DNA of 64,000 nucleotides from a virus: the IMG/VR virus record IMGVR_UViG_3300009161_000031, positions 1-64,000 of that record, one strand, 5' to 3'. A program made the position numbers and the translations under genes. Below, in pieces: positions 1,116-55,108 of the stretch (position 1 is the first letter of the stretch; every line of letters begins with the position of its first letter). The notes under the pieces are model-generated. The model was not told the origin of the DNA. It did not search any database and saw only the letters and a program-made list of their open reading frames with translations.

Positions 1116-2363
1116 ATGAGCACACAACCATGGTTGGAAGAACAGACACTAAAGAATATCTATGATCTCCCTGAGATTAATACAGATTTAGATGTGGTTC
1201 ACTACTTTAAAGACCGTGGAGTTGTTGTAGCTAGAAGAACCATTGCAGATGCCAGAGTAAAGTTTGGCATTCCTACTTCCAAGCCCAAAGGGGCATATAT
1301 GACAGATACAGAGGATGCAAGTCTAGAGAAAAGAGTCATCAGATTAGAGCGAGAATTGATGACGGCCAGAAGTGAGAGGAACACCGCACGACAGGCTCAC
1401 AAGGTGGCAGAGCAGGACACTGTTAAGTATAAGGCAGCTAATGATGTCCTACTTAAAGCTAGTAAGTTATCGGTGCAGAGCGCACCTTGGTCTAAATCAA
1501 AAGTGCGCCGCAAGGGTGCAGCTACAGCCCTCATCATGCTTTCCGATTTACATCTTGATGAAATAGTCAAGCCATCTGAGGTAGGCGGCTTGAACGCCTA
1601 TAACCGTGAGATAGCCCTACAGCGCCTTCAGAGGACTGCTGAGGGTGCGGTCAACATGGGCAAGAACCTTATGGGCGGTTTTGAGTATGAAGGCGCAATA
1701 GTCATTCTGGGCGGAGACATGGTTGCAGGGAATCTGCATGATGATGACATCTTCAATGAAGAGTCTTCAATGATACCAACGGTAGATTTCTGGGTAGACC
1801 ATCTAGCCAAGTTTTTAGAAACAATTGCTGATGCCTATGGCTCTACGCACGTTGTATCGGTTGTTGGAAACCATGGAAGGCTGTCGATGAAGCCCCGCAT
1901 GAAAGGGCGCACTGAAGATTCCTGGGACCACTTATTGGCTCTTATGCTACAGCGTCATCTTAAGGGAGATAAGAGATTTACTTGGAATATCCCGTTGTGC
2001 GCTGATGCCTATGTAGAAATTTATGGACGTAGAATGTTGATCACTCATGGCGATCAGATGAAAGGCGGGGGAGGTCTAGCTGGTCTAGTAAATCCTGCTT
2101 CTATCTTCGATGCGCGAAAGCGTAAGCGTAATGCTTCTATGGGCGATGAACACGATCATATGTGGGTGGGCCATTTCCATTCTTATACTCGCACAGGCAA
2201 GGTAACTGTTAATGGTTCGCTTAAAGGTTTAGACGAGTATGCATTTCTGGGTAACTTCGCTTATGAAGAACCTATCCAGGCATTTGCAGTAATTACTCGG
2301 GAACACGGCGTTACTCTTGAAGCTGGCATCTATTCTGTAGATCGCATTGCTGAGGGCTGGTAG
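1116..2363 (+). CDS. Calcineurin-like metallophosphoesterase with N-terminal coiled coil
   Basis: Motifs SDLH, GGDMV, GNHG, THGD, GHFH. Confidence 0.85.
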   Translation: MSTQPWLEEQTLKNIYDLPEINTDLDVVHYFKDRGVVVARRTIADARVKFGIPTSKPKGAYMTDTEDASLEKRVIRLERELMTARSERNTARQAHKVAEQDTVKYKAANDVLLKASKLSVQSAPWSKSKVRRKGAATALIMLSDLHLDEIVKPSEVGGLNAYNREIALQRLQRTAEGAVNMGKNLMGGFEYEGAIVILGGDMVAGNLHDDDIFNEESSMIPTVDFWVDHLAKFLETIADAYGSTHVVSVVGNHGRLSMKPRMKGRTEDSWDHLLALMLQRHLKGDKRFTWNIPLCADAYVEIYGRRMLITHGDQMKGGGGLAGLVNPASIFDARKRKRNASMGDEHDHMWVGHFHSYTRTGKVTVNGSLKGLDEYAFLGNFAYEEPIQAFAVITREHGVTLEAGIYSVDRIAEGW

Positions 2364-12344: not shown

Positions 12345-13298
12345 ATGTTAAGAATTAATCGCGGAGAACGTATGCCGCTACACGATATAATCCCGACTCC
12401 TTCAGTCGGACTAAACCATGTATTGGGTGGAGGACTTTGGACTGGACGATTCAGTTTAGTTTGGGGCACTCCCTCTGCTGGGAAAACAACTATGTTGTTA
12501 CATCTTCTAGCTAATGCTCAGAAGAAAGGGTATACCGCAGTCATTGTAGATACCGAAGGGTCTATTACCGACAATTGGGCAGAAAAATGCGGAATAGATT
12601 TAACAAATAGAATCTTGCTTCAAAGTCGTATTGCTGAAGATATCCTGAAGCACATCATCCCCATGATGCAAGAGCCTGATAGCAAGTATATTTTTCTTAT
12701 TGACAGCATCAATGGCATTGCCTCTGAGTCTTTCTATAAATCAGACGAGGGGGGCGGGGGAATTGCCTCGCAGGCTAGGTCTAGGCGTTTGATGTATCAG
12801 AAAATGTCTGAGTATCTTAGCGTAGACAATGCTGTTATTATGGTGGCTCAACAGACTATGGACTTAAGCGGCAATCATCCTCGCCTAATGGCTAAGATCG
12901 GCAATGCTGAGTTACATTGGACTACAAATATTGTAAACCTATTTGCTTCGGCGGCTAAGGACTCTATCGAACGTGCAGGGGATTCTAACCTTATTGTCAA
13001 TAGAGAGGTTAGATGGACTATTGAGAAGTCTAAGCAGTCTCCAGTAGAGGGAACTCGTGGTTCTTATTGGTTCTCACCTCAAAATGCCGATATTGACATT
13101 AAGATGGAGCTAATTGATTTGGCGGTAATCAATGGAATTATTGAGAAGCGTGGTGCATGGTTCTATATCGGAGAAACAAAATTTCACGGTATGAAAAACT
13201 TAGTTGAAGGGGCCACCGATGAGCTAGTTCTTGATATCAAGAATAAGTTGGAGAATGGACTACTAACAACGGACAGTGGCAGCGCAGATGCCACATAA
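12345..13298 (+). CDS. recA: RecA-like recombinase
   Basis: LGGGL..GR; GTPSAGKTT; DTEG; IDSI; IEKRGAWF. Confidence 0.9.
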   Translation: MLRINRGERMPLHDIIPTPSVGLNHVLGGGLWTGRFSLVWGTPSAGKTTMLLHLLANAQKKGYTAVIVDTEGSITDNWAEKCGIDLTNRILLQSRIAEDILKHIIPMMQEPDSKYIFLIDSINGIASESFYKSDEGGGGIASQARSRRLMYQKMSEYLSVDNAVIMVAQQTMDLSGNHPRLMAKIGNAELHWTTNIVNLFASAAKDSIERAGDSNLIVNREVRWTIEKSKQSPVEGTRGSYWFSPQNADIDIKMELIDLAVINGIIEKRGAWFYIGETKFHGMKNLVEGATDELVLDIKNKLENGLLTTDSGSADAT

Positions 13299-41550: not shown

Positions 41551-41967
41551 TTTTATTTCCTATCTATTAGGCCCGATTAGTCGGGGGTAAGGGGTGGAAC
41601 CGATAAGGCCACCCTAGCACACTCTCCCGCTTGTCTCGCATTGGCAAACTAAAAAAGAAAAAACCAAAATTTTGATCCGGGGAATAGTTCTACATAATGT
41701 TTTCGCATAGAGATGTTTGAGATTATTATTGTTGATTATTGTTGCCGTTAGTTATTCGCTTATTTATTCCAGTTTATTGTTGAGATAAGACGAAGAGATG
41801 CTGGCGTGCCAAAATCGCCGGAGGCGATTTTGGCACGCCAGCCCTGAAGCGGACGCGTCAAGGGGAGGGGCCGTCGCCCCTCCCCTATTCGCCGCAGACC
41901 TTCGGTGCCTGCCTTCCCTTCGGGTCGGGGGCTTGTTCCCCTACCCGCTACTAGTAACCATCGCAGG

Positions 41968-42234
41968 CTAGGCTCTCACCCGTACTTGGGCGAAACCCTC
42001 GGGCGAGAAGTCTACGCGGCACTCTCCCGCTTGAACCTCCGCCCAATGCTTGCGAATGGTTGCGGACACCGTAGGCCGGTCGCTTTTGGCGACAGCGCCG
42101 AATGTCCCCTTGAGGGCTACGCCTTGCTTGGGGGTAACCTTCGCAAGAGTCTCAAGAAGTTCTACAATAAGAACCTTCTTACGACCTCGTGGGGAAACCT
42201 GTACGGAATCCGCTGAAATGAACTCATCGTTCAT
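41968..42234 (-). CDS. Cassette protein, 'SPRGRKK' family copy 1
   Basis: RBS GGAGGTG; near-identical to 43042-43308 and 44662-44928. Confidence 0.8.
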   Translation of the reverse strand: MNDEFISADSVQVSPRGRKKVLIVELLETLAKVTPKQGVALKGTFGAVAKSDRPTVSATIRKHWAEVQAGECRVDFSPEGFAQVRVRA

Positions 42235-42507
42235 TTGTCTAATCACCTCCCGTCTTGAGCCGTTGCTCTTAGTGTTTCGAAGAATCCGAACTTTACCGGA
42301 TTACCTGACAAAGAACAGACTACCGGCCTAGAGCTATTGAGTCCACTTCTGCTCATTCTTTTATTTTTATTCTCAATAACTAACCTACTAAAAAAGCCTC
42401 ATTATTTGACACCACTAGATGCTGTCGTGCCAGGATCGCCTGCGGCGATTTTGGCACGACAGCCCACTCCGTAGCCTCGGGGGTTTCCCCCCGAGGATTT
42501 GCGGAAC

Positions 42508-42717
42508 TTAGACGTACTGCTTCTCACATAGGCAGCATTTGTCGTTGTAGTAAAAATCTGATTCCTTGCGCTGTTTGATGGTCTGCCTGCGAACGATTAG
42601 GGGTATGTAACTACCGCCTTTGGCTCGGGGGTCATTGTGAAAACAGTCGTGACAGACTAAGCCGTTACCGCCTAGGCGATGAACAAAATAACAGCCTTTG
42701 AGTTTTGGAGAAGTCAT
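42508..42717 (-). CDS. Cassette protein, small Cys-rich zinc finger
   Basis: CHDC...CCLC; own promoter and RBS. Confidence 0.65.
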   Translation of the reverse strand: MTSPKLKGCYFVHRLGGNGLVCHDCFHNDPRAKGGSYIPLIVRRQTIKQRKESDFYYNDKCCLCEKQYV

Positions 42718-43041
42718 TATGAGCCTTTCGGACTAGGGGACTTGATTACATACTGAAATCTACTAGCTAACGGCCTGCGAGTCAAGCCTTAGCGAGTATT
42801 TATTCTATTTATTTATTTATCTAACCCCAAGCAATGCTGGCGCTCCAAATCGCCGGAGGCGATTTGGAGCGCCAGCCCCGAGCGCGACAAGGCCCGCTCT
42901 GAGGGGGCAGAGCGGGCCTTGAGCTAGAGTAATTCGGGGGAGAGGTTCGCACCTCTCCCCCTACGGCTGCGGCTATCGGGATTGCCGCTGGCACCTCGCA
43001 CCCCGTAGCAAGCGGGGGGCGCTACTGATACGATTCATCCG

Positions 43042-43308
43042 CTAGCGGATACGCACCTGCGCGTATCCCTCCGGTGAGAAATCAATACGGCATTCGCCGC
43101 TTTGTATAACGCACCAGTGCTTCCGAATCGTTGCTGCTACCGTCGGGCGGTCACTCTTGGCGACTACTCCAAAGGTTCCCTTAAGCGCAACACCCTGCTC
43201 GGGTGTGACGTTCGAGAGAGTGTCAAGCAAATCCTGAATAAGAATTTTCTTGCGCCCTCGCGGGGATACCTGTACGGCATCAGCAGGTAGAAATTCATCT
43301 GCTGGCAT
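43042..43308 (-). CDS. Cassette protein, 'SPRGRKK' family copy 2
   Basis: RBS GAGGTG; paralog. Confidence 0.8.
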   Translation of the reverse strand: MPADEFLPADAVQVSPRGRKKILIQDLLDTLSNVTPEQGVALKGTFGVVAKSDRPTVAATIRKHWCVIQSGECRIDFSPEGYAQVRIR

Positions 43309-43580
43309 AATAATCACCTCGATTCTTGGGCCGTTGCCCGATAGTTACGATGGGAACCTTGCCGTTCCCTGCTGACAAAGACCAAACTAATCGCGATGCC
43401 GTTCCCAGTCAATTTCTGTACGTCATTATTACCTCAAGAAACTTATCATTTGCGCACATTCCATAAAATGTAAATACCGCTACGACTTGACACGGGCGTG
43501 CCTTTTTGCGAGAGCAAAAAGGCACGCCCGCCCTGAGCAACCGGCATCAGGGCGAGCGTACGGCCTTTGGAGGCTCGCTG

Positions 43581-43871
43581 TTAGGCGAAATCCTCGGGGG
43601 TGATGGAGTCCCAATCCATTGCGTCTACGACTTCCTCGGGGCTAATCCCGAGGAGTTCGGTCACCTCTAGGTGACTAACGCCTAAATCTAGCGCTCGGGC
43701 GATAATGGCGGGGCCGAGAGCGTCAAAGGCGCGTGACATAAGAAGCACACCCGTTATGGCGTGACGGATAGAGTCGGGGTCGCCATTGACGACCAACTCG
43801 TGAAGGTTAAACATTGCCTGTACGCTTACCTCTAGCGTTTCTGTTAGTAGATTACGCTCTTGCTCGTTCAT
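43581..43871 (-). CDS. Cassette protein with C-terminal HTH-like segment
   Basis: ARALDLGVSHLEVTELLGISPEEV. Confidence 0.6.
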   Translation of the reverse strand: MNEQERNLLTETLEVSVQAMFNLHELVVNGDPDSIRHAITGVLLMSRAFDALGPAIIARALDLGVSHLEVTELLGISPEEVVDAMDWDSITPEDFA

Positions 43872-44089
43872 TCGGTGGAGCCTCTCTGTTAGGTGACTTG
43901 CTTACAAAAGAGAAACTACTAGCTATTGGCCTGCGAGTCAAGTCGGAGCGGGGATTTATTCTATTTTATTTACAATGCCAAGCCAAGAGATGCTGGCGCT
44001 CCAAATCGCCGGAGGCGATTTGGAGCGCCAGCGCATAGCAAAGCCCCCACCGTTGCCGGTAGGGGCTTTTATTGCTAAGGCGGGGTGGC

Positions 44090-44446
44090 TTAGTTATCCA
44101 GCCCCTTAAACGTGCGTTCGATGTCTCGGATTGTCTGCGCTGCCCACGCATAGGCGAGTCCCTGTAACTCGTCTGCGATAGGCTCCCCCACTAGAAGGCA
44201 GAGAGCGATTCTCAAGCCCTCTTGCTCTCCCTCTATTTTTAGGGCTTCGGCATTGTGCGGGTAGTTAAATGCGTCTAGGCGTAACTCGCTTATTCCTAGT
44301 CGAATGGCTATGGCCTCAACAGCCGATTTGAGGTCTTTAACCCTTTCCATTATCGGATAATGGAAACCTGCCTGATAGTGAAAAAAGTTAAAGATCGCGT
44401 CTTTAAGTTTTTTTTCGTATGCTTCTGCGCTAGTCGCGATGTCCAT
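44090..44446 (-). CDS. Cassette hypothetical protein
   Basis: Lies between promoter 44487-44515 and a terminator hairpin. Confidence 0.65.
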   Translation of the reverse strand: MDIATSAEAYEKKLKDAIFNFFHYQAGFHYPIMERVKDLKSAVEAIAIRLGISELRLDAFNYPHNAEALKIEGEQEGLRIALCLLVGEPIADELQGLAYAWAAQTIRDIERTFKGLDN

Positions 44447-44661
44447 TGGGAGAGCCTTTCGGTTGGGTGGCTTGGGTACAAATGAGAAACTACCAGCTCA
44501 CGGCCTGCGAGTCAAGCCGGAGCGGGTATTTATTCTATTTATTTTTGTTAGCGATACCAGATAATGCTGGCGCTCCAAATCGCCGGAGGCGATTTGGAGC
44601 GCCAGCGCATAGGAAAGCCCCCGCCTCACGGCAGGGGCTTTCCCGTATTCCGCTAAGGGGG

Positions 44662-44928
44662 TTAGCGGATTCTTACCTGAGCGTATCCCTCAGGCGAAAA
44701 GTCAATACGGCACTCTGAAGCCTGAACCTCGCTCCAATGCTTGCGGATAGTCGCCGCAACCGTTGGCCGGTCAGACTTAGCAACCTCACCGAACGTACCT
44801 TTGAGAGATACGCCTTGCTTTGCGGTTACTTTCTTTAGTGTTGCGAGTAGGTCGGGGATTAGGATTTTCTTTCGACCTCGGGGCGATACCTGAACATCGC
44901 TAGCGTCAATAAACTCATCTACGGGCAT
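44662..44928 (-). CDS. Cassette protein, 'SPRGRKK' family copy 3
   Basis: RBS AAAGGAAAG; paralog. Confidence 0.8.
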   Translation of the reverse strand: MPVDEFIDASDVQVSPRGRKKILIPDLLATLKKVTAKQGVSLKGTFGEVAKSDRPTVAATIRKHWSEVQASECRIDFSPEGYAQVRIR

Positions 44929-45198
44929 TTGGCACTTTCCTTTTCTTAGTAGGTAGTTAGAGTAGAAAGTCTCCGCTCCAACAGAGATAAATCTACTCCT
45001 CCCTACTAAGTGAGTCAAGTTGGAGCGAGAGTTTTTCTAGAAACTTTTTGAGTAGCTGTCGGCCCGAGCGTTTATTCCACCTAACATAAAACCTAAGACG
45101 ACTTGACACGGGCGTGCCTTTTTGCGAGGAACGAGCAAAAAGGCACGCCCGCCCTGAGCAACCGGCATCAGGGCGAGCGTGCGGCCTTGCGGAGCGGA

Positions 45199-45426
45199 CT
45201 AGATAATCACGCCCTCCATCAGGTTTACCAACGCATCAGCCGTAGTTACCGGAGCGTAGCCGTAGGCAATAGCGGCGATTATTTCTCTATCGCCATTTTT
45301 TGCGGCGACTCTTAGAACGTGAGAGATAATGGCGACGACATTAGAGTCATTGCTTATCTTATGGGCGATAGAATCGGTGCGATTTATTAGAGCGCTTCTT
45401 ATGGCTTGAGTTTGTTCAGGATTCAC
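45199..45426 (-). CDS. Cassette hypothetical protein
   Basis: GTG start after a GAAAGGCTC leader. Confidence 0.6.
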   Translation of the reverse strand: MNPEQTQAIRSALINRTDSIAHKISNDSNVVAIISHVLRVAAKNGDREIIAAIAYGYAPVTTADALVNLMEGVII

Positions 45427-45712
45427 GTTGGAGCCTTTCGGTTAGGCGACTTGCTTACAAGAGAGAAACTACCAGCTATTGGCCTACGAGTCAAGCCGGA
45501 GAAGGTATTTATTCTATTTTATTTTAGAACTGATACCGAGCAATGCTGGCGCTCCAAATCGCCGGAGGCGATTTGGAGCGCCAGCCCTGAACGCAACAAA
45601 GCCCGCTCTGAGGGGGCAGAGCGGGCTTTGCGATAATGGCGGCCCCCCACGCCCCGTATGCGGGCGTAATGCCTTCAGCAAACCCAACGGGTTATGCGGG
45701 GGGGGCCACGAA

Positions 45713-45853
45713 CTAGAAGTTGAGAGACTCAATCCACGCTGCGACAATCGGCAGGACTATGAACGCCGAGATGCCGAGCAGATACGGGAAGACCTGCCTC
45801 CACCTATCTTGGAGACTAAAGAATACCTCTACGCTATCGAAACGACGGTTCAT
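45713..45853 (-). CDS. 46-aa membrane peptide (not in the ORF track)
   Basis: MNRRFDSVEVFFSLQDRWRQVFPYLLGISAFIVLPIVAAWIESLNF; TGATG overlap with the upstream ORF. Confidence 0.55.
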   Translation of the reverse strand: MNRRFDSVEVFFSLQDRWRQVFPYLLGISAFIVLPIVAAWIESLNF

Positions 45854-46008
45854 CAGATTACCTTTCCGATTAGTGTGATGACTAGAGCGCCTAGACCTAT
45901 TAGGGCTAGGAATCCTAGCGTTATTAGGGTCACGCCGAGTAGCCCTGCGGCCACCTCTGCGAAACTATCTTCGCGAACATTCTTGAACCACACGTTAGAT
46001 AGTTTCAT
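45853..46008 (-). CDS. Small membrane protein
   Basis: RBS AAAGGAAAA; long hydrophobic C-terminus. Confidence 0.6.
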   Translation of the reverse strand: MKLSNVWFKNVREDSFAEVAAGLLGVTLITLGFLALIGLGALVITLIGKVI

Positions 46009-46234
46009 AGTTTTCCTTTGCTCGGGGTTGGTTTCCATAGTTAGAAACTACTAGCTGATGGCCTGCGAGTCAAGTCTATTTGGTTATTTATTCTAAGTTT
46101 ATCTAATACCGATACCAGCCTTTGCTGTCGTGCCTCACATTTATGTGAGGTGTCGTGAGGCACGACAGCCCGATAGGTTTCCGGGCGCGAAAAAGCCCCC
46201 CTTGCGGGGGGCTTCTGCCGACTCTCCGAGGCCG

Positions 46235-46576
46235 CTAGGCGACCTCGGGGCGGTCTTCCCGGCAGTCGTGATGCCCGCTGTAGCAAAACTCGTCGCTATC
46301 GAACTCTATAGAGTCATCGCCCTCAACGAAAATAAGCATCCCTGCGGCCATAGCCTCGTAATGCCCCTCGGGGTTCTGAATGATAGCCATGTAATCCCTG
46401 TCCGTTTGAGGGTCAAGCGCCTCAACGGCATAACCGATTAGAGCAGTTTTATCCGCCCAGTCCGCGTCCCAAAAGTTTCGAGACTCAATAAAGCGCATAA
46501 GTCTCCATTCTTTGACATCAAGTAAGCCGCCAAAGTGAAAATCTAGCAAGTGGCGAACGGTTTCGATGGTCTCCAT
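46235..46576 (-). CDS. Cassette protein, paralog of 46832-47179
   Basis: IETVRHLLDFH...NPEG.YEAMA.GML. Confidence 0.75.
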   Translation of the reverse strand: METIETVRHLLDFHFGGLLDVKEWRLMRFIESRNFWDADWADKTALIGYAVEALDPQTDRDYMAIIQNPEGHYEAMAAGMLIFVEGDDSIEFDSDEFCYSGHHDCREDRPEVA

Positions 46577-46831
46577 TTTTTCCCCTTAGATCGGGAGTGC
46601 GGGGTGCGCTCCAACAAGGACAAAACTAATCGCGTTACCTATTTGAGTCAAGTTATAGAGGCAAATTGAGGAAAAGAATAGGTTCACTCTAAGTAGCCAA
46701 AAGCTATCACCACTCAACGCTGGCGTGCCTCACATTTTTTTGTGAGGTGCCGTGAGGCACGCCAGCCCGATGGGTTTCCGGGCGCGAAAAAGCCCCCCTT
46801 GCGGGGGGCTTCTGCCGACTCTCCGAGGCCG

Positions 46832-47179
46832 CTAGGCAGCCTCGGGGCGAGATTCCCGGCAGTCGTCGTGCTGGTCGATACAAAACTCATCAAGGTCGAA
46901 ATCTAAGATACCTGAGGATTCTATGTGGCTAAGCATACCGACAGCCATCGCTTCGTAGTATCCCTCGGGGTTATTCATAATGACCTGATAATCATCGGCG
47001 GTCTGAGGGTTGATAACGCTCACCGCAAAACCGATAAGCGTCATTTTGTTTTCCCAATTTGCTTCCCAAAAGTTACGAAACATAATGGCACGCATTAGTT
47101 TCCATTCATCGTGGAATGGCATAGTAAATGAATCCTGATGAAAATCTAGCAAGTGGCGAACGGTTTCGATGTTGTCCAT
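46832..47179 (-). CDS. Cassette protein, paralog of 46235-46576
   Basis: Tandem duplicated cassette. Confidence 0.75.
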   Translation of the reverse strand: MDNIETVRHLLDFHQDSFTMPFHDEWKLMRAIMFRNFWEANWENKMTLIGFAVSVINPQTADDYQVIMNNPEGYYEAMAVGMLSHIESSGILDFDLDEFCIDQHDDCRESRPEAA

Positions 47180-47422
47180 TTTGTCCCCTTAGGTTGGGAG
47201 TGCCGGTTGCGCTCCAACAAGGACAAAACTAATCGCGTTTCGGTTTTGAGTCAACTTCTGCTAACGATTTGAGCAAAAGAATAGGTTCACTCTAAGTGGC
47301 CACCAGCTACCACCAGACCCAGCGGGCGCACGCTACGAGGAACGAGTAGCGGGCAGCGTGCGCCCGCCCCCGAGGGGGAGTCACGGAGAGTGGTTGCCCA
47401 CCCTCCGTGACCCGACCGGCCC

Positions 47423-47728
47423 CTACAGGTAGTCGTGGGCGATGTTGCGGATTATGTCGTTTACCCAACGGTCGGGCCAATCGAGGTAATCCTGAGACTC
47501 TGCGAATACGTCCACCGCATTGGCAAATGTGGTCACGCCTACGATAGCGTGCGGGAATCCCATACGGACTAAGGATAGGCTCTGAGTCCATTCCATAGAG
47601 TCTAGGGCTAGGATAAGGGGCATTAGGGCATCTATTGAGTGAACAGATCGCGCCTCGCCGCTGGCGTGAGCCTCAATGAGGCTAAGGCGTAGCGCCTTGC
47701 CCTCTGCGTCTAGTGAGTAATTCGGCAT
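47423..47728 (-). CDS. Cassette hypothetical protein
   Basis: Fits between promoter and terminator hairpin. Confidence 0.65.
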   Translation of the reverse strand: MPNYSLDAEGKALRLSLIEAHASGEARSVHSIDALMPLILALDSMEWTQSLSLVRMGFPHAIVGVTTFANAVDVFAESQDYLDWPDRWVNDIIRNIAHDYL

Positions 47729-47973
47729 AATCGTGGAACCTTTCAGGTGAGGTGCGCCGGTTGCGCTCCAACAAGGACAAACCTACTAGCGTTCCGAATC
47801 TGAGTCAAGGCGGGAGAGCAAATTGAGGAAACAATGATGTTCACTCTAAGTGGCCAAAAGCTACCACCACACTCAGCGGGCGCACGCTACGAGGAACGAG
47901 TAGCGGGCAGCGTGCGCCCGCCCCCGAGGGGGGGTCACGGAGAGTGGTTGCCCACTCTCCGTGACCGGGTCGG

Positions 47974-48219
47974 TTAGAAATCGCACTCGTGGTTTACGTC
48001 GTGGTCGTCAAGGTTGGGAAGTTCGTGCCTCCACGCTTGGTAGAGAATCGCTTCCTCTAGCGCTGCTGCGCTGTAGTTTAGGATTGTGTAATCGAGCCAC
48101 TTAGCGCCCGACTCTGCGGAAATCGTGCGAGAAATCTCGCAACGAAATGCGCGAACTAATGGGGCAAGTGCCGAACGCGACGCGGTTTCGGCGGCTAGGA
48201 CTTTCTGTGTGTTGGTCAT
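47974..48219 (-). CDS. Cassette hypothetical protein, predicted leaderless mRNA
   Basis: ATG 6 nt after the -10 box TAGATT. Confidence 0.65.
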   Translation of the reverse strand: MTNTQKVLAAETASRSALAPLVRAFRCEISRTISAESGAKWLDYTILNYSAAALEEAILYQAWRHELPNLDDHDVNHECDF

Positions 48220-48430
48220 AAGAGAAATCTACCCTAGATTAGATTCTGAGTCTAGTTATGCGGCTAAAGATTGTCTCAAGATGTTGAGGTTAGAATACTC
48301 ACTCTAAGTGGCCAAAAGCTATCACCAGCCGTTGCGGGCGCACGCTACGAGGAACGAGTAGCGGGCAGCGTGCGCCCGCCCCCGAGGGGGGCCACGGAGA
48401 GTGGTTGCCCACTCTCCGTGACCGGGTCGG

Positions 48431-48643
48431 TTACTCCTCCCAGCCGACGATGCGGTCGGGGACTTCCCAGTCCTCAACGTCGCCGTCGTCCTCGCTGCGG
48501 ACAGAGCGGGCGTAGACCTCGGGGTCATCGAAACTGAATTCGTAAACCTTGACCTCGATAGGAGCGCCCCACTGAATTCCAGAGAGGGCCGCGTCCCACT
48601 CCATTGCCAATTCGCTTGCGGTCTTGCCAGAGACGTTCGGCAT
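48431..48643 (-). CDS. Cassette acidic protein
   Basis: C-terminal EDDGDVEDWEVPDRIVGWEE shared with 49546-49731. Confidence 0.7.
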   Translation of the reverse strand: MPNVSGKTASELAMEWDAALSGIQWGAPIEVKVYEFSFDDPEVYARSVRSEDDGDVEDWEVPDRIVGWEE

Positions 48644-48911
48644 CTGCCAAATCCATTCTCTCAGGGAGTCCGCCGGTTGCTCGCTCCAATAAGTACAAAC
48701 TACTCGCGTTCGGAATCTGAGTCAACTTCTGCGTGCGAATTGAGGTAAAAATGATGTTCACTCTAAGTGGCCAAAAGCTATCACCACACAACGCTGGCGC
48801 ACGCTACGAGGGACGAGTAGGCGGCAGCGTGCGCCAGCCCGGGCCAAGGTCACTCTGAGTGATGAGGGGGGAGCGCCCCGACCCTTGCGGGCCGGGGCTT
48901 GACCCCTAGAC

Positions 48912-49220
48912 TCAGATTGAGAGTCTAAAGACCCTGGCTAGGTCTATGATTTCATCGCAAGCGGCTATTGCCTCGGTGCGAGGGACATCGTCGCCGCGTA
49001 GTGGGGCTAGGTCACCCAACACGCTTTGCATAGCGTGGCTGTAGGGGTTATCCATTCCCCAAATGCCGGTGGTCATGAGCACGTTGAAGATAACGTGAGC
49101 GTTCATGAACGTGCACCCCCACAATTCCTGTATCCGTTCCTTAATAAGTACGGAATTGGTGCTTACGGTTACCGCCGCATCGGTTGTCGCGGTTGCGACC
49201 TCTCCAGAGAAGTTCGGCAT
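48912..49220 (-). CDS. Cassette protein, paralog of 50028-50336
   Basis: MPNFSGEVATA...RI.ELW. Confidence 0.7.
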   Translation of the reverse strand: MPNFSGEVATATTDAAVTVSTNSVLIKERIQELWGCTFMNAHVIFNVLMTTGIWGMDNPYSHAMQSVLGDLAPLRGDDVPRTEAIAACDEIIDLARVFRLSI

Positions 49221-49545
49221 GTGGCCAAATCCATTCTCTCGGGGAGGGAGCCGGTTGCTCTCTCCAATAAGTACAAACTACCAAACATCAGTATGCGAGT
49301 CTATTTGTGCGCCTAATTATTACCTCAAGATTAAAAAAAGAATCCAAAAAAAACCAGCTCCCGGCTTGACACGGGCGAGCGGGTGTGATTTGTTCTGCGG
49401 CCACTCTAAGTGACATTTTTTCCCATACCAGCCAACGCGGGCGAGCTTAGCACACGGTAGATCGTGTGTGCGTATGGGGCGGCTCGCCCGCCGAACCCCA
49501 AAGGGGAGGGGAGAGGCTGGAGCCTCTCCCCTTTGCCCCCGGGAG

Positions 49546-49731
49546 TTACTCCTCCCAGCCGGTGATGCGGTCGGGGACTTCCCAGTCCTCAACATCGCCG
49601 TCATCCTCAAGCGGGAACCGGTCGGGGCTGACCGTGTGGAGGATGCTGTCCAACTGTCCGAGCGGATGCCCGAACATGTGTTCTATCAAGCCGCGTGCGT
49701 CAAACGCGGGGCTAGCAGAGAAGTTCGGCAT
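49546..49731 (-). CDS. Cassette acidic protein (chimeric)
   Basis: MPNFS start as in 48912-49220; C-terminus as in 48431-48643. Confidence 0.7.
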   Translation of the reverse strand: MPNFSASPAFDARGLIEHMFGHPLGQLDSILHTVSPDRFPLEDDGDVEDWEVPDRITGWEE

Positions 49732-50027
49732 GTGGCCAAATCCATTCTCTCGGGGAGGGAGCCGGTCGCTCTCTCCAATAAGTACAAACTACCAGCTAAT
49801 GGCTTGCGAGTCTATTTCTGCGGGCTATTTCTTTGCATTATTTCTTTTTTTATTTGTGAGCAGAACTTGACAGCGTACTAAACTTGTACTAGACTACCCC
49901 ACCACTCTGCGCTGGCGCACGCTACGAGGGACGAGTAGGCGGCAGCGTGCGCCAGCCCGGGCCAATGTCACTCTGAGTGATGAGGGGGGGGGGAGCGCCC
50001 CGACCCTTGCGGGCCGGGGCTTGACCC

Positions 50028-50336
50028 CTAGGCTGCGTCTACCCAATCCATCATTAGGTAAACGATTACCTCGGAGGCAATCATCGCCTCGGAGTGTGGA
50101 GTATTAGTCCGACGCAGGCCGATTAGTGAGGCCATTACTCTCTCGCCTGCGGTATGGGCCATTCCCTCGGTTGCCCAAATCATAGTGGACGATAGGGCTC
50201 CGAATACCGCTTGAGCGGTTCTTGAGTCAACATTCCACAATTCTTTGATGCGCTTAGTGATTGCTATTGAGCAAGGCGCTACGGTTACCGCCGTATCGGT
50301 TGCCGCGATTGCGACCTCTCCAGAGAAGGTAGGCAT
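50028..50336 (-). CDS. Cassette protein, paralog of 48912-49220
   Basis: MPTFSGEVAIA...RIKELW. Confidence 0.7.
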   Translation of the reverse strand: MPTFSGEVAIAATDTAVTVAPCSIAITKRIKELWNVDSRTAQAVFGALSSTMIWATEGMAHTAGERVMASLIGLRRTNTPHSEAMIASEVIVYLMMDWVDAA

Positions 50337-50654
50337 TTGGCCAAATCCAGTCTCTCGGGGAGCGAGCCGGTTGCTCTCTCCAATAAGTACAATTTACCAA
50401 ACATCAGTGAGTGAGTCTATTTCTGCGCCTCATTGTTTCCTCAAGATAATAAAAGAAATCCAGCTCCCGGCTTGACACGCAGCCGCGGCTGTGATTTATT
50501 CTGCGACCACTCTAAGTGACCAAAAATGCCAAACCAAGCCGAGCGGGCGAGCTTAGCACACGAAGAGCGTGTGTGCGTATGGGGCGGCTCGCCCGCCGAA
50601 CCCCAAAAGGGGAGGGGAGGGGCCGGAGCCCCCCCCCCTTGCTCCCCCGGAGGG

Positions 50655-50948
50655 TTACTCCTCGTCTCGGAAGACGGGGTACCAACGCTCACCCTCGGGG
50701 GTGACGATGAGAACATCGGCAGCCTCGGCAGCGGCGACGAGAATGTCCACCGTCGCTTCGAGTATTAGCAACTCGAAGGTTGTGGTGAACGAGGTGACCG
50801 CGTCAAGCGCCTTGTCCGTAGCCTTGAACGCGTCGGCCAACTCTTGCGCCTCGTAGCGGTTCACGTAGAACCCCTCTAGGCGTTTCGCGAGAACCGTCGC
50901 GTCGGCTACCGCGGGTGCGGTCTTGCTAAGAGAGAGAATCGGCTTCAT
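50655..50948 (-). CDS. Cassette hypothetical protein
   Basis: Start MKPILSLSK chosen by leader alignment (alternative ATG 50960). Confidence 0.65.
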   Translation of the reverse strand: MKPILSLSKTAPAVADATVLAKRLEGFYVNRYEAQELADAFKATDKALDAVTSFTTTFELLILEATVDILVAAAEAADVLIVTPEGERWYPVFRDEE

Positions 50949-51270
50949 GCCGTAGTCCATTCTCTTGGGGAGTCCGCCGGTTGCTCGCTCCGATAAGTAC
51001 AAACTACCAAACACGCCTATGCGAGTCCATTTCTGCGCCTCATTTTTTCCTCAAGATAAAAAAAAGAATCAAAAAAAAACTAGCTCCCGGCTTGACACGC
51101 AGCCGCGGCTGTGATTTATTTTATGACCACTCTAAGTGACCAAAAATGCCAAACCAAGCCGAGCGGGCGATCCTAGCACACGGTAGATCGTGTGTGCTTG
51201 GGCGGCTCGCCCGCGTGACCCCAAAGGGGGAGGGGAGAGGCCGGAGCCCCTCCCCTTGTTCCCGGCTCCC

Positions 51271-51480
51271 TTAGACTTCGTACCCGTGGCGGGTAAGAAT
51301 GTCCCGGGTCATTGAGACGATTGTCTCGTTGAGGGCAACCATCTCAGCCCCGAACGATTCGCCGTGAGAGCGAATGTTGATGTCAATCCCCGCATTGCGG
51401 ATTGACATTCTCAGCCGGGACTCAGCGTCGCGAACGAAGTCGCGAAGCACACTTGCCCCACTCTCGGTTATTCCGGCCAT
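51271..51480 (-). CDS. Cassette hypothetical protein
   Basis: RBS AAGGAGA before MAGITES. Confidence 0.65.
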   Translation of the reverse strand: MAGITESGASVLRDFVRDAESRLRMSIRNAGIDINIRSHGESFGAEMVALNETIVSMTRDILTRHGYEV

Positions 51481-51802
51481 AACTGTCTCCTTAGGTTCGT
51501 GGAGCGAACCGGTTGTTCCCTCCAACAAGTACTAACCTATCGCGTCCCCGTGTGCGAGTCCACTTCTGCGCCTAAATGTTTCCTCAAGATAAAAAAAAGA
51601 ATCGAAAAAAAACCAGCTCCCGGCTTGACACGGCGGCGCGCCTGTGATTTATTCTGCGGCCACTCTAAGTGACATTTTTTCCGCCCCCAGTTCTCGCGGG
51701 CGATCCTAGCACACGGTAGATCGTGTGTGCTTGGGCGGCTCGCCCGCGTGACCCCAAAGGGGAGGGGAGGGGCCGGAGCCCCCCCCCCTTTTCCCGGGAA
51801 GT

Positions 51803-52048
51803 TTACTTTGTCCACTTAATGGCAAAGTCGATTGCCTTAGGCAACATCACTTGGATGTCGTACTCATCCTCGGTGTAGTAGTCTGTGATGAGGTACTGTA
51901 GCGCCTCACTTATGACCTCGGGGGAGAGTGTGGCAACAAACTCCATGGCCGCCTTGACGCACATGATAGGCATGTGAATCGGGTCAAGGCTAACGGCCTT
52001 GGCGTGTGCCGCGATTGCGGCCTTGCTAAGAGAGAGAATCGGCTCCAT
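51803..52048 (-). CDS. Cassette hypothetical protein
   Basis: MEPILSLSK N-terminus shared with 50655-50948. Confidence 0.65.
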   Translation of the reverse strand: MEPILSLSKAAIAAHAKAVSLDPIHMPIMCVKAAMEFVATLSPEVISEALQYLITDYYTEDEYDIQVMLPKAIDFAIKWTK

Positions 52049-52331
52049 GCCGTAATCCATTCTCTAGGGGAGTCCGCCGGTTGCGTGCTCCGATAAGTAC
52101 AAACTACCAAACACGCGTAGGTGAGTCCACTTCTGCGCCTCATTATTACCTCAAGATAATAAAAAAAATAAATCCGGCTCCCGACTTGACACGGGGCCGC
52201 GGCTGTGATTTATTTCACGGCCACTCTAAGTGGTCAAAAAAGCGTATCCATATTTAGCGGGCGATCCTAGCACACGAAGAGCGTGTGTGCTGTCCGGGCC
52301 GCCCACGTAACTGTTGTTCTGGGGGGCCGCT

Positions 52332-52441
52332 GGGCGCGGCGAGCCGCGATGTGGGGCGCGGCGAGCCGCGATGTGGGGCGCGGCGAGCCGCGATGTGGGG
52401 CGCGGCGAGCCGCGATGTGGGGCGCGGCGAGACGCGATGTG
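52332..52441 (+). repeat. Tandem repeat, 5 x 22 bp GGGCGCGGCGAGCCGCGATGTG
   Basis: Read directly; last copy has one mismatch. Confidence 0.95.
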
Positions 52442-52538
52442 GGGTACGTCAAGCTGACTCCAGGCCAGAACCAGGGCTCGGGCCTGGGCGCGCAGAGGGG
52501 GGAGAGGCCGGAGCCCCTCCCCCGCCTCGCCTGCGGGG

Positions 52539-52652
52539 TTATGCGATGCAGTAGATTAGGAAGCAGAGCAGCTCTGCCCTGCGCTCTTCGCTCAAGAGCG
52601 GGGTCGTGTGGTACGTGTAGTCGAGCAACATAATCAGTTCGCCGTGTGTCAT
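52539..52652 (-). CDS. 37-aa cassette peptide (not in the ORF track)
   Basis: MTHGELIMLLDYTYHTTPLLSEERRAELLCFLIYCIA; RBS AAAGGAAAA; promoter 52694-52722. Confidence 0.6.
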   Translation of the reverse strand: MTHGELIMLLDYTYHTTPLLSEERRAELLCFLIYCIA

Positions 52653-52848
52653 AGTTTTCCTTTTTTCGGGGAGCCGGTTGCTCCGATAAAGATAACTTAT
52701 CACCGGCCCTAGTGTGAGTCAAGTTGGAGCGGGTATTTCTTTTATTTTATTTATCGGGCCGCGCTGTTGGCCGCGCTGTCGGGGTAGGTCGCGTGGTGTG
52801 TGCTGTTGTGTGAGTAGGGCAGGGCGGGTACGCCCTGCTGGCTCTGCC

Positions 52849-52946
52849 CTGGCCTGACCCAGGGTCGCGAGCTGGCCTGACCCAGGGCCGCGAGCTGGCC
52901 TGACCCAGGGCCGCGAGCTGGCCTGACCCAGGGCCGCGAGCTGGCC
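52849..52946 (+). repeat. Tandem repeat, about 4.3 x 23 bp CTGGCCTGACCCAGGGCCGCGAG
   Basis: Read directly; first copy has one mismatch. Confidence 0.95.
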
Positions 52947-53072
52947 GCGTCCTGGCCTACACGCGACAACGCCGCGACCCACGCTATCGGGTCGCGGTGT
53001 TCGCCTATGGCGGTACGATAACCCGCACCCCTTGAGACTCTCGCACTAGGCGAGAGTCTCGCGGGCTACGTG

Positions 53073-53294
53073 CTAGGCGCTTAGGGCTATTAGTTCGGTT
53101 GCGACGTTACCGGCGTTGGCGATTGTGTGGACTAGTGCGGCCTCAAGCGCGGTAGTCTGTCCATCGGTCGCAAGCATTAGCAACATCTCGCGGATAGTCC
53201 GGTCGGCGTTGGAATGGCCAAGAATCGCCTCGGTCACTCGGCGCGTTATTTCGTCAAGCCGTATTTCTACTGCGCGGTGCTGGTGGTGATTCAT
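53073..53294 (-). CDS. Hypothetical protein
   Basis: RBS AAAGGGGA; followed by a 64-bp repeat with hairpin. Confidence 0.6.
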   Translation of the reverse strand: MNHHQHRAVEIRLDEITRRVTEAILGHSNADRTIREMLLMLATDGQTTALEAALVHTIANAGNVATELIALSA

Positions 53295-53382
53295 TATGTC
53301 CCCTTTGGTTGGTTGGTTGGTGGTACGGTAACCCGCACCCCTTGAGACTCTCGCACTAGGCGAGAGTCTCGCGGGCTACGTG

Positions 53383-53664
53383 CTAAACGCTTACGTGGTG
53401 GAACGCTATCACCGCGTTCGCGTTCTCGGCACCGATTACGTTCCCACCGATTACGTGACCGGCGAGACGCGCAAGCCATACGCGGCGCTCTTTAGTTGGC
53501 ATCGCGGCTATTGCTATCGCGGCACCACGTAGGCGAGGCTCTGACTCAAACAGTAGGGCCGCGTTTGCCTTGAGGCGGAGACTCAAGGCATCTTGCTCCC
53601 CTACTACTTGCGCGCGGTCCGCGTTGCCACCGGTGTCCGGTAGGTCTAGCGTGGAATCGAACAT
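53383..53664 (-). CDS. Hypothetical protein
   Basis: RBS AAAGGGGA before MFDSTL; followed by the same 64-bp repeat. Confidence 0.6.
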   Translation of the reverse strand: MFDSTLDLPDTGGNADRAQVVGEQDALSLRLKANAALLFESEPRLRGAAIAIAAMPTKERRVWLARLAGHVIGGNVIGAENANAVIAFHHVSV

Positions 53665-54100
53665 TTGTTCCCCTTTGGTTAGATTCCGAGCGGGTGTCTC
53701 CCGCTCGGCCTTGCCCCTAAAGCGTACCGCGTCGCGGGTGCCGCGCATAGCATCGGGGCCGCGATTAGGCGAAGAATCGGGAGCTTGACCGCGCAGCGTG
53801 GCCAGCTATGGGCCGATTCTCACGCCGCGTGGTCGTTGGAGGTCGTTCTGGCAGATGGTGCGCCAGCACGACAGACTTCTCCTAATATTTATTCAATTTT
53901 TCAAAAATATGTATTCAAGTTTTTGAATTCTTGCATTCAAGTTTTTGAATTTTTGGGTTGTTGTATATTTATGATGAAAGGGGGGCTTTTGGGGTTGTTT
54001 GGTTATATTTATTGGTATGTAGGCACTCTCTGTAAGGTTCGCATGTTTCGTCGCTCTACGGGGCACACAGGGGGCTCTCCGGGGATTGTACACGCCTATA

Positions 54101-55108
54101 TCATGGGCCTGTTTGCATACCTATTGTTGCTTTGTTGTGTTTGATGATTTGGCTTGCTACCCATTGGGCGACGGGTGCTGCGATGCCGTTTCCGATCATG
54201 CGGAGTCTGGGTGTATCTTTGACGGCTCTGCCGTCTGCGAGCGTGGCGCAATGGCCTTCGGGCCAGCCCATGAGTCGTTCGCATTCCAATGGGCTAAGCC
54301 GCCGGAGTTGATGGGTCCCGCCCGTTTCGGGTCTGAGGTTATCGACCGCAATGAGGGTCGATTCGCGTTCATGGGTGCTCGCGACCAATGATGGGGCTAT
54401 TGTTCCTTCGCCGTATTTTCCATATCCTGTTGATACAAAGATGCTTGGCGCTGGAGGATCTCCAAGAGTTGTTCCGGGATCGGGGCGTTGCGGCTTTGAA
54501 TTCGTTTCATGATGCCTGCGCAAGCTTTTGGGCTGAGGGTATATCGTGGGTGCGGACTCTCCTCCAGCATGGAAATCAGCGATGAGAAAGACTCTTCGCC
54601 TGCGTTGGGATAAGCCGAAGTTTTGAGCATCCAGGATTCGCCATTCGATTGCCATTGCCCCCAGCCCAACCATACTTTCGAGTACACGGAGAAATGACTG
54701 TCCATGTTCGGCACTAAGGAGTCCAACAACATTTTCTGCAACGGCGTATCGGGGATAAATTCCATCTGTGGCCTCTCTCATTTCTCGGATAATGCGGGCC
54801 GCTTCAAAGAAGAGAACTGACCGCTGACCTTTAAAGCCCTGCCGGGTGTCACCATAGACACCAGCGTTGCTTACATCCTGACAGGGGAACCCAAATGTGA
54901 TGATATCAACAGGCTCTATGTCATATCCGTTGATATCAACTATATCACCATATCTAGTGACGTTAGGCCAATGCCGTTCTAGGATGCTAGTGCAGCGCTC
55001 GTCTTTTTCGACTTGCCACTTGCATTCTAGTCCCGCAGCATCAAAGCCTAAATCTAATCCACCTACTCCAGCAAAAAGTGACCCATAGGTCATTGTTTTA
55101 GATATCAA
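54101..55108 (-). CDS. DNA (cytosine-5) methyltransferase
   Basis: SLFAGVGG; GFPCQD; ENV; QRRRRVF; RRLSPLECERLMG; IGNG. Confidence 0.93.
   Translation of the reverse strand: MISKTMTYGSLFAGVGGLDLGFDAAGLECKWQVEKDERCTSILERHWPNVTRYGDIVDINGYDIEPVDIITFGFPCQDVSNAGVYGDTRQGFKGQRSVLFFEAARIIREMREATDGIYPRYAVAENVVGLLSAEHGQSFLRVLESMVGLGAMAIEWRILDAQNFGLSQRRRRVFLIADFHAGGESAPTIYPQPKSLRRHHETNSKPQRPDPGTTLGDPPAPSIFVSTGYGKYGEGTIAPSLVASTHERESTLIAVDNLRPETGGTHQLRRLSPLECERLMGWPEGHCATLADGRAVKDTPRLRMIGNGIAAPVAQWVASQIIKHNKATIGMQTGP
54397..54765 (-). CDS. Nested alternative-frame ORF resembling the M.EcoHK31I beta polypeptide
   Basis: SSL..MLE...PRYTLSPKACAGIMKR motif, lying inside the MTase gene. Confidence 0.6.
   Translation of the reverse strand: MEFIPDTPLQKMLLDSLVPNMDSHFSVYSKVWLGWGQWQSNGESWMLKTSAYPNAGEESFSSLISMLEESPHPRYTLSPKACAGIMKRIQSRNAPIPEQLLEILQRQASLYQQDMENTAKEQ

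Follow-up and report, generated by a model that had tools for sequence, protein, structure and literature searches.

Probable in-frame chimeras in a cassette array of small phage genes

In T4-type phages, hyperplastic regions contain promoter-early stem-loop (PeSL) cassettes (Arbiol et al. 2010, PMC2839356; Comeau et al. 2014, PMC4122927). Recombination between the terminator-promoter modules deletes, inserts, or replaces the open reading frames (ORFs) that lie between them (PMC2839356, PMC4122927). The present analysis concerns a comparable array in the IMG/VR virus record IMGVR_UViG_3300009161_000031. The record is a complete phage genome of 101,003 bp; the window, i.e., the stretch of DNA analyzed, is its first 64 kb. 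The array extends from 41780 to 53950 on the minus strand, the strand of all array features given below. Its 12 kb hold about 22 one-gene cassettes, c01 to c22, each of which contains, in order, promoter-like hexamers, a leader, a small ORF, and GC-rich hairpins. The array works like PeSL shuffling and is an independent instance outside the T4-like set. The reading we prefer, and think probable, is that PeSL-like homologous recombination, with homology arms that extend into the coding ends of the ORFs, has produced in-frame chimeras. The case set out first is c08, in which a head shared with one cassette and a tail shared with another enclose a unique body.

The array can be compared with PeSL regions point by point. 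In PeSL regions, small ORFans stand in rows, and each has at its flanks a stem-loop terminator, an AT-rich stretch, and a sigma70-like promoter combined into one composite module; in the array, a composite of stem-loop, AT-rich stretch, and promoter-like motif likewise lies between successive small ORFs. Among closely related PeSL phages, ORFs have been lost, gained, or exchanged for others, with crossovers within the repeated regulatory modules. The relatives of the present phage also differ by ORF indels and replacements, with junctions inside repeated modules, namely, the leader, the head, and the hairpin sets. Both kinds of phage encode recombination proteins of their own. There are differences as well. 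The present phage is not a T4-like myovirus; its genome of 101 kb has a 123-bp direct terminal repeat and encodes a DnaE-type polymerase. The array's scaffolds are much longer than PeSLs (~250–330 nt, making up half of the array), with several hairpins and long palindromes, and the array is a GC-rich island. Homology in the array enters both coding ends, giving in-frame chimeric proteins, whereas the PeSL papers, in the sections used here, describe chimeric PeSLs rather than chimeric ORFs. Finally, promoter and terminator activity and excised mini-circles have been demonstrated for PeSLs (PMC2839356), whereas the array is known from sequence alone.

A second comparison is with the SAS and ESAS of Cluster K mycobacteriophages. 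These are conserved sequences, sometimes with an inverted repeat, at the starts of many unrelated non-structural genes of one phage, and they suggest a common translation-initiation or regulatory signal (Pope et al. 2011, PMC3203893). The SAS is a 13-bp motif that lies 3–7 bp upstream of the start, outside the ORF (PMC3203893). In contrast, the block shared among array cassettes spans ~110 nt, takes in a promoter-like motif as well as a 5′ hairpin, and extends 5–19 codons into the ORF.

The c08 ORF (49546–49731; 61 residues, isoelectric point (pI) 4.2, beginning MPNFSAS) is a patchwork of shared head, unique body, and shared tail, with mosaic boundaries at both ends. Its best match shifts along its length, from c16 and c19 in the promoter spacer, to c09 in the leader and head, to nothing in the body, to c10 in the tail, and to c06 in the hairpins. 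At the 5′ end, the segment that starts at the −35-like hexamer and closes with coding base 16 (49822–49716) aligns with 49311–49205 of the c09 unit at 90.7% over 107 nt, and is 83% identical to the c07 unit. The aligned block consists of the promoter-like hexamers, the leader with its hairpin, and ATGCCGAACTTCTCTG; similarity ceases after it. c09 itself (48912–49220; 102 residues, MPNFS) is a paralog of c07 (50028–50336; 102 residues, MPTFSGEVA...), with 38% amino acid identity, and its high-identity 5′ tract reaches ~57 nt into the ORF. The spacer of the c08 promoter is not of the c09 type; it is of the lower-array type, 89% identical over 27 nt to those of c16, c18, and c19.

At the 3′ end, the last 21 codons of c08, EDDGDVEDWEVPDRITGWEE, plus the stop (49545–49608) match the corresponding segment of c10, EDDGDVEDWEVPDRIVGWEE plus the stop (48430–48493), at 60 of 64 nt, or 94%. 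c10 (48431–48643) has 70 residues, a pI of 4.05, and an MPNVS start. The DNA after the two stop codons differs, with a ‘B’ hairpin set after c08 and an ‘A’ set after c10. The ‘B’ set of c08 (49401–49554) is 85% identical over 159 nt to the set following c06 (50507–50663), and this 85% similarity is common to c06, c05, and c04. The c08/c06 homology begins 6 nt, i.e., two codons, before the stop codon and continues past it. The tail block shared with c10 is bounded 5′ by GAGGA, and its 3′ end is GAGGAGTAAC; c06 (...RDEE) closes with this string too, at the point where the ‘B’ set starts.

Between these shared ends, c08 is on its own. When residues 6–41 of c08 are aligned with residues 6–50 of c10, the Smith-Waterman score is below the shuffle mean (z −0.8). 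The body shows no similarity to c07, c09, or c12, and blastn and tblastn reveal no other match in the 101-kb genome; among related contigs only its own orthologue is found. An earlier note, made from the sequence alone, had claimed that c08 shares its leader and MPNFS start with c09 and its last ~20 residues, in nearly identical DNA, with c10, around a unique middle; each of these statements is borne out by the alignments.

The direction of the tail transfer is suggested by c12 (47423–47728; 101 residues, MPNYS...), which contains ...DYLDWPDRW... and has an MPNxS head written in different codons. c10 and c12 are weakly similar and colinear (BLASTP E 0.001; hhalign E 0.006), the similarity including ..MEW..LS..G.P... 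The DW(EV)PDR motif occurs only in c08, c10, and c12 in a six-frame translation of the whole genome; that is, the tail is present in two ORFs, plus a degenerate form in c12. The colinearity and the motif together indicate that the tail is native to the c10/c12 lineage. Judged by these sequence relationships, c08 is likely the recipient of the tail, and the lineage of c10 its probable source. Complementary deletions, by which c08 and c10 would each retain one half of a c12-like ancestor, are not supported: c10 is linked to c12 weakly, and c08 by the MPNxS head only (BLASTP E 0.24; body z −0.5). Rejected was the notion that the tail is an RNA or DNA hairpin module and that this is the main reason for its identity: the fold is imperfect, its stability is within that of shuffled sequences (z −0.9 to −2.1), and no covariation accompanies the GTC/ACC codon variant described below.

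Searches of protein sets of 5.8 billion and 1.84 billion sequences with c10 returned its own cluster and the c08 tail only; three further phmmer matches were compositional artefacts. A back-translated EDWEVPDR pattern found no relatives elsewhere. In the databases searched, neither the tail nor the c10 family occurs outside this lineage, and none of c04, c06–c10, and c12 has a significant match to Pfam or PHROG profiles or to proteins from elsewhere. For c10, the ESM Atlas offers a poor model (pLDDT 0.43), which gave no usable structural match. The acidic, tryptophan-containing tail may be a portable interaction motif or a DNA mimic.

A sister strain, known from three short contigs (L001, L002, and L003) found in a scan of one metagenome, displays the array in a rearranged state. 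These contigs are 95.1% identical to the window in aligned coding DNA and, likewise, 95.1% in non-coding DNA. At least six cassette-level events within ~7 kb set the two apart. c02 is replaced by a different ORF, c03 is absent, and c07 is missing on L003, where c06 is directly followed by c08. The order c10, c12, c11 replaces that of the window, with a c12 ortholog that begins MQNYS placed before c11, and one diverged copy stands in place of c13 and c14. Two cassettes have been re-headed. On L003 (1250–1492), the c05 promoter and the 5′ half of its leader are retained up to ...GGTTCGCTCC, and what follows is the leader end and head of the c04/c06 type (MDYGMKPNLSASK) joined to a novel 80-residue body; the 3′ leader and body of c05 (51271–51480 in the window; 69 residues) are gone. 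The novel body is found nowhere in the window genome, and it is the third unrelated body on the c04/c06 head. On L001, the DNA upstream of window c08, including the head (49955–49717, 97.5%), is joined to a c09-like body. The earlier note had proposed a search of relatives for other combinations of head and tail, and these two are new joins of head and body. The junctions observed vary in site and include the leader, the head, the tail border, the stop codon, and the hairpin sets.

Comparison of the strains also shows exchange inside the tail. One codon is GTC (Val) in c10 and ACC (Thr) in c08 in the window, and this arrangement is reversed in L001, L002, and L003. The codon, which differs by 2 nt, is the only non-synonymous difference between the c08 and c10 tails. 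One synonymous site of the sister c08 tail has also changed to the c10 state. Among database variants, both alleles occur on both genes, and all four c08/c10 tail combinations are found. Polymorphism common to c08 and c10 is a signature of gene conversion.

Gene conversion, or concerted evolution, among tandem paralogs leaves short tracts of near-identity inside otherwise diverged paralogs. The array resembles such systems in the tail polymorphism shared between genes and in heads homogenised within a strain: in the sister strain, the c07-like and c09-like proteins agree at every one of their first 19 residues, with 4–5 differences in the window. It differs from them in that, beyond the tract, no paralogy of c08 and c10 can be detected, which makes the tract a transplanted module rather than a homogenised segment of two old copies.

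A second set of shared heads is found in c04 and c06. c04 (51803–52060; 85 residues, MDYGMEPILSLSK...) has the same scaffold and first 17 codons as c06, followed by an unrelated body. c06 (50655–50960) has 101 residues counted from the first ATG (MDYGMKPILSLSK...); counted from the second ATG, it begins at 50948. In both genes the extra in-frame ATG lies four codons upstream (MDYGM...). The upstream scaffold and head of c04 (52009–52311) are 83% identical over 311 nt to 50909–51219 of c06. Identity rises to ~93% over the last 110 nt of the block, from the −10-like hexamer on, and the block ends 52 nt (17 codons) past the first in-frame ATG. The bodies of c04 and c06 are not similar (z 0.2), and pairwise comparisons of c04, c06, and the new sister-strain ORF gave z values of 0.2, −1.0, and 2.6. 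The shared leader and M(K/E)PILSLSK.A start followed by divergence, as noticed in the sequence earlier, are thus real. So is the earlier count of five MP(N/T)xS starts, which are c07 (MPTFS), c08 and c09 (MPNFS), c10 (MPNVS), and c12 (MPNYS).

What the heads stand for is less straightforward. The two head types are homologous in DNA (ATG-CCG-AAC-TTC-TCT versus ATG-AAG-CCG-ATT-CTC-TCT), and the heads belong to the conserved promoter-leader scaffold, whose 3′ end reaches 5–19 codons into the ORFs. Differences among heads are mostly non-synonymous. In c08 to c10, a small hairpin that involves the leader (UUUGGC/GCCGAA) can hold the start codon in its loop. Together, these last two observations favor a nucleotide-level role. 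We accordingly favor the view that the head overlap reflects a role in translation initiation, together with homogenisation by conversion, over the view that it encodes a functional N-terminal peptide. The heads could thus have persisted through constraint on the nucleotides or through concerted evolution after duplication, and they need not be places where unrelated genes were joined. A protein search focused on the head (c06 residues 1–40, E up to 10) returned c06 itself only. N-terminal capsid-targeting and cleavage signals are known from the internal proteins of T4. Such a signal was considered for the heads and rejected: no (L/I)xE motif is present in them, and their amino acid sequences are not conserved. 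The earlier note's central claim, recombination inside ORFs, thus holds for the tail, a sharp 64-nt block of 94% identity with different flanks and with variants exchanged between strains, and for the re-headed sister cassettes (the c05 replacement and the c08-upstream/c09-like join), but for the heads only in part.

The small ORFs show purifying selection as a group. For nine colinear orthologous ORF pairs, pooled, there are 30 synonymous and 36 non-synonymous differences. The pooled pN/pS is 0.36 in the annotated frame (synonymous excess p 6e-5), compared to 1.03 and 1.06 in the other frames. In the paralog families c13/c14 and c17/c20/c22, dS is saturated and dN is low. Of the 23 array ORFs, 21 have their lowest codon-position GC at the second position (GC2), the exceptions being c16 and c17, which have high GC1. 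All database variants of c08 (61 residues) and c10 (70 residues) keep length and frame, and several array ORFs have canonical Shine-Dalgarno sequences. Judged by these substitution patterns, the array ORFs are translated as a group; the earlier note had named untranslated ORFs as an outcome that would refute it. c08, c04, c06, and their neighbors are real small acidic genes in a hyperplastic array of one-gene cassettes.

The mechanism we propose is as follows. General homologous recombination and gene conversion between cassette repeats would delete, duplicate, permute, and replace cassettes, with the phage's own UvsX-like recombinase and exonuclease as the probable executors. The UvsX-like recombinase (12345–13298, plus strand; phrog_97, E 1e-34) is a candidate for a trans-acting recombination function, and so is the exonuclease (1116–2363, plus strand; phrog_284, E 2e-42), which is of the SbcD/Mre11-like class by PHROG. 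The 5′ homology enters 5–19 codons of the ORF, and the 3′ homology covers the last 2 codons plus the stop for c06/c08 and the last 21 codons for c08/c10; exchanges that stay in frame would yield chimeric proteins. c08 would then be composed of a c09-type leader and head with a lower-array promoter spacer, an unmatched body, a tail of the c10/c12 lineage, and a c06-type hairpin set. As the repeats are long and similar enough, the junctions lie at several sites, and no dedicated recombinase is found, general recombination is the simplest model.

Several points weigh against this account. The junctions flanking the tail share just 5–10 nt (GAGGA, GAGGAGTAAC), and the first placement of the tail in c08 may have been illegitimate or mediated by microhomology, rather than by classical homologous recombination. 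The sharing of heads can also be explained by a translation-initiation region conserved after tandem duplication. Taken singly, c08 and c10 have too few substitutions to reveal selection (synonymous and non-synonymous differences, respectively, 2 and 3 for c08, 4 and 4 for c10). The sister-strain DNA comes from a single metagenome and consists of three short contigs. The −10-like hexamer TAGTTT agrees with TATAAT at only three of six positions; because this hexamer is weak, a generic promoter scan calls only a few array promoters. Nor does the account explain the high GC content of the array.

The most serious competitor, though an unlikely one, makes the cassettes ordinary tandem paralogs of one ancestral cassette, the bodies of which have diverged past recognition, in fast or diversifying evolution, while selection on the translation-initiation region or on a C-terminal motif with a function kept heads and tail, so that no junctions between unrelated genes exist. 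Clear paralog families do occur in the array (c07/c09, c13/c14, and c17/c20/c22), and the very diverged relatives c10 and c12 demonstrate that divergence to the limit of detection happens here. The homology of the two head types in DNA fits as well, as does the start codon of c08–c10 in its leader hairpin loop, a possible nucleotide-level constraint on the first codons. This reading has difficulty with a tail that is 94% identical, with two synonymous differences only, beside unalignable sequence and with different 3′ flanks, and with a 2-nt tail variant that swaps between c08 and c10 across strains. It is also opposed by a sister cassette whose leader changes type in mid-hairpin region and by another that joins DNA upstream of c08 to a c09-like body; and the mostly non-synonymous head differences leave no protein-level constraint visible. 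Improbable, to a further degree, is a specialised cassette system that acts on DNA structure, either in the manner of integrons or through hairpins or cruciforms; the palindromes would be its recombination sites, for an enzyme or for template switching, and the chimeras would result from its imprecise operation. Integron arrays do share with this array a one-directional row of small, mostly unknown genes with an imperfect palindrome after each and a content that varies among relatives. Long GC-rich palindromes and hairpins follow every cassette, and the non-coding half of the array is as conserved between strains as the ORFs. However, the complete genome gave no match to a tyrosine recombinase in a PF00589 search with positive controls, no IntI or other integrase, and no serine recombinase or resolvase; a PF00078 search gave no reverse transcriptase. 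Each cassette has its own promoter-like motif, unlike integron cassettes, and junctions occur at several places rather than at one site. A diversity-generating retroelement likewise would need the reverse transcriptase not found here, and the tail differences are not adenine-specific. The array is neither an integron nor a diversity-generating retroelement.

Two readings that dispose of the chimeras altogether deserve even less credence. The proposal that the ORFs are not genes, but structured non-coding DNA or RNA in which high GC and few stops leave frames open and the tail is a hairpin module, is very improbable. It can draw on a coding density of just 48%, on long spurious ORFs of the opposite strand (e.g., 49466–49870), on the lack of Pfam or PHROG families for the 23 ORFs beyond two marginal PHROG matches, on the tail's capacity to form an imperfect hairpin, and on the poor c10 model. 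It is contradicted by a pooled pN/pS that is low in the annotated frame only, by paralogs that keep their protein at saturated dS, and by the retained lengths and frames, the coding-type codon-position GC, and the Shine-Dalgarno sequences described above; the tail hairpin, moreover, is no more stable than shuffled sequences. An assembly artefact, in which repeats led metagenome assemblers to wrong neighbors and so created apparent chimeras and rearrangements, is scarcely credible. The window and all its relatives are indeed metagenome assemblies, and the array is full of 80–95% repeats. Yet the 61-residue c08 architecture is present in three sequence variants from separate JGI and ENA assemblies, c10 and the sister-strain cassettes recur too, the repeats are diverged rather than identical, and the swapped tail codon is 17–19 nt from unique 3′ flank, i.e., inside any usual k-mer or read. 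Sister-type protein variants also co-occur, by protein look-ups, with a c07 variant on an independent 7,824-bp ENA contig. No relatives elsewhere emerged when viral contigs were scanned with c10, c13, and the c17 family and genome contigs with the c17 family, or when leader and promoter DNA patterns were used.

The regulatory scaffold on which homologous recombination would act is near-identical among cassettes, at 80–95% over 100–300 nt. In the 5′ part of a cassette, an AT-rich stretch is followed by the sigma70-like, promoter-like hexamers T(T/A)GACT-N17-TAGTTT. In this strict form the motif has 13 copies on the minus strand, every one of them within the array, and a single copy in the remainder of the 101 kb. 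A relaxed motif, [TA][TAG]GACT-N16-18-TA..T., with an AT-rich stretch upstream, precedes 20 of the 23 array ORFs; the topmost cassettes, c01 and c02, do not have the promoter-like motif of the remaining array. The leader is ~55 nt long with a hairpin of the form GGAG..-(A/G)ACCG-..CTCC. The (A/G)ACCG loop is found in most upper-array units that have the GGAG...CTCC leader; the loop is ACCCC in c14, and c10 does not fold the hairpin. Pairing in the upper stem is kept through GAGC/GCTC, GAAC/GTTC, and CGC/GCG variants, a compensation seen in single-sequence folds; RNAalifold on a MAFFT alignment of the leaders did not recover the hairpin. An upstream ATG in the leader was rejected as the true start of c07–c10, since its distance from the second ATG varies among cassettes (12, 13, or 14 nt) and c07 has CTG in its place, so that it is not a conserved start. 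In c11 (48219–48260) and c15 (46038–46080), the −10-like hexamer ends just 6 nt before the ATG; the messenger RNAs of these two would be leaderless, the leaders of other cassettes being ~40–75 nt.

After the stop codon, the scaffold continues for 250–330 nt with GC-rich hairpins and palindromes, several per cassette, located between the previous stop codon and the motif of the next cassette. The hexamers would constitute an early promoter for host RNA polymerase, and the hairpins would serve as transcription terminators. Scaffold accounts for 52% of the array and coding sequence for only 48%. Such a large scaffold share is highly unusual in a phage; with its conservation between strains, equal to that of the ORFs, it implies that the scaffold has a function of its own. 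The sister strain also has, upstream of the −35-like hexamers of c04 and c06, a module with the palindrome GTGACGCATGTCAC in place of the AT-rich stretch (L003 560–600 and 1690–1720 versus window 52130–52160 and 51040–51075). Even sub-modules of the scaffold are thus exchangeable.

The array is the sole GC-rich part of the genome, at 52–59% GC versus 31–44% elsewhere. The whole genome falls into three GC compartments, ~41% (1–24 kb and 56–101 kb), 31–33% (24–40 kb, where tRNA-Glu and tRNA-Leu are located), and the array. Transcription of the array is opposite in direction to that of the first 40 kb. Genes found in the phage include those for a DnaE-like polymerase, a DnaB-like helicase, a primase, the UvsX-like recombinase, the exonuclease, and a large terminase. 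The best matches of the polymerase are only 36–38% identical and are to Streptomyces phages, and a megablast search of a phage collection with the array gave no match. The 23 array ORFs span 37–118 residues and are mostly acidic (pI 4–5). None of the 23 matched a Pfam profile, two had marginal PHROG matches (E ~0.002), both to unnamed families, and no Rfam family was found within the array even at E up to 1.

Other features of the locus can be noted. A C5 DNA methyltransferase gene (54101–55108; phrog_116, E 3e-73) is the immediate upstream neighbor of the array and shares its strand. The sole two-gene cassette, at 45713–46038, has short hydrophobic, membrane-like ORFs of 61 and 46 residues that overlap by ATGA. 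c01 and c02 are each followed by a copy of a 76-nt repeat that has a strong hairpin (53008–53083 and 53318–53393; 95% identical). Array spacers also contain GC-rich tandem repeats at 52310–52476 and 52826–52963, with a 22-nt unit in ~6 copies and a 23-nt unit in ~5 copies. The c03 cassette, which lies between these two repeats, is absent from the sister strain, together with part of the repeats.

Recombination at repeated regulatory modules is already known, so the value of this locus is that of a clear example and not of a new mechanism. Phages carry their unknown anti-host and anti-defence proteins chiefly in early regions, and the origin of new ones is poorly documented. Small, very acidic, early-type ORFans are typical of such proteins, and the products of the array would be early anti-host or anti-defence proteins. 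A more speculative idea, to which we give little weight, is that the array is a ‘gene nursery’, a combinatorial generator of new proteins in which a fixed expression frame, made up of promoter, 5′ hairpin, start codon, and a few initial codons, and at least one portable acidic tryptophan-containing C-terminal module are joined in frame to arbitrary GC-rich, stop-poor inserts. If this were true, the phage population would continually create and test new small anti-host proteins, and the GC content of the island would be either a prerequisite, providing open frames, or a consequence of GC-biased gene conversion. At base resolution and with population evidence, the locus shows PeSL-type shuffling outside the T4-like phages. 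Such shuffling can reach coding sequence and fuse, in frame, a head, a body, and a tail that come from unrelated small proteins, and so offers a concrete route to new ORFans. c08 and c10 provide a defined pair for asking whether a 20-residue acidic tryptophan-containing tail is a transferable functional module.

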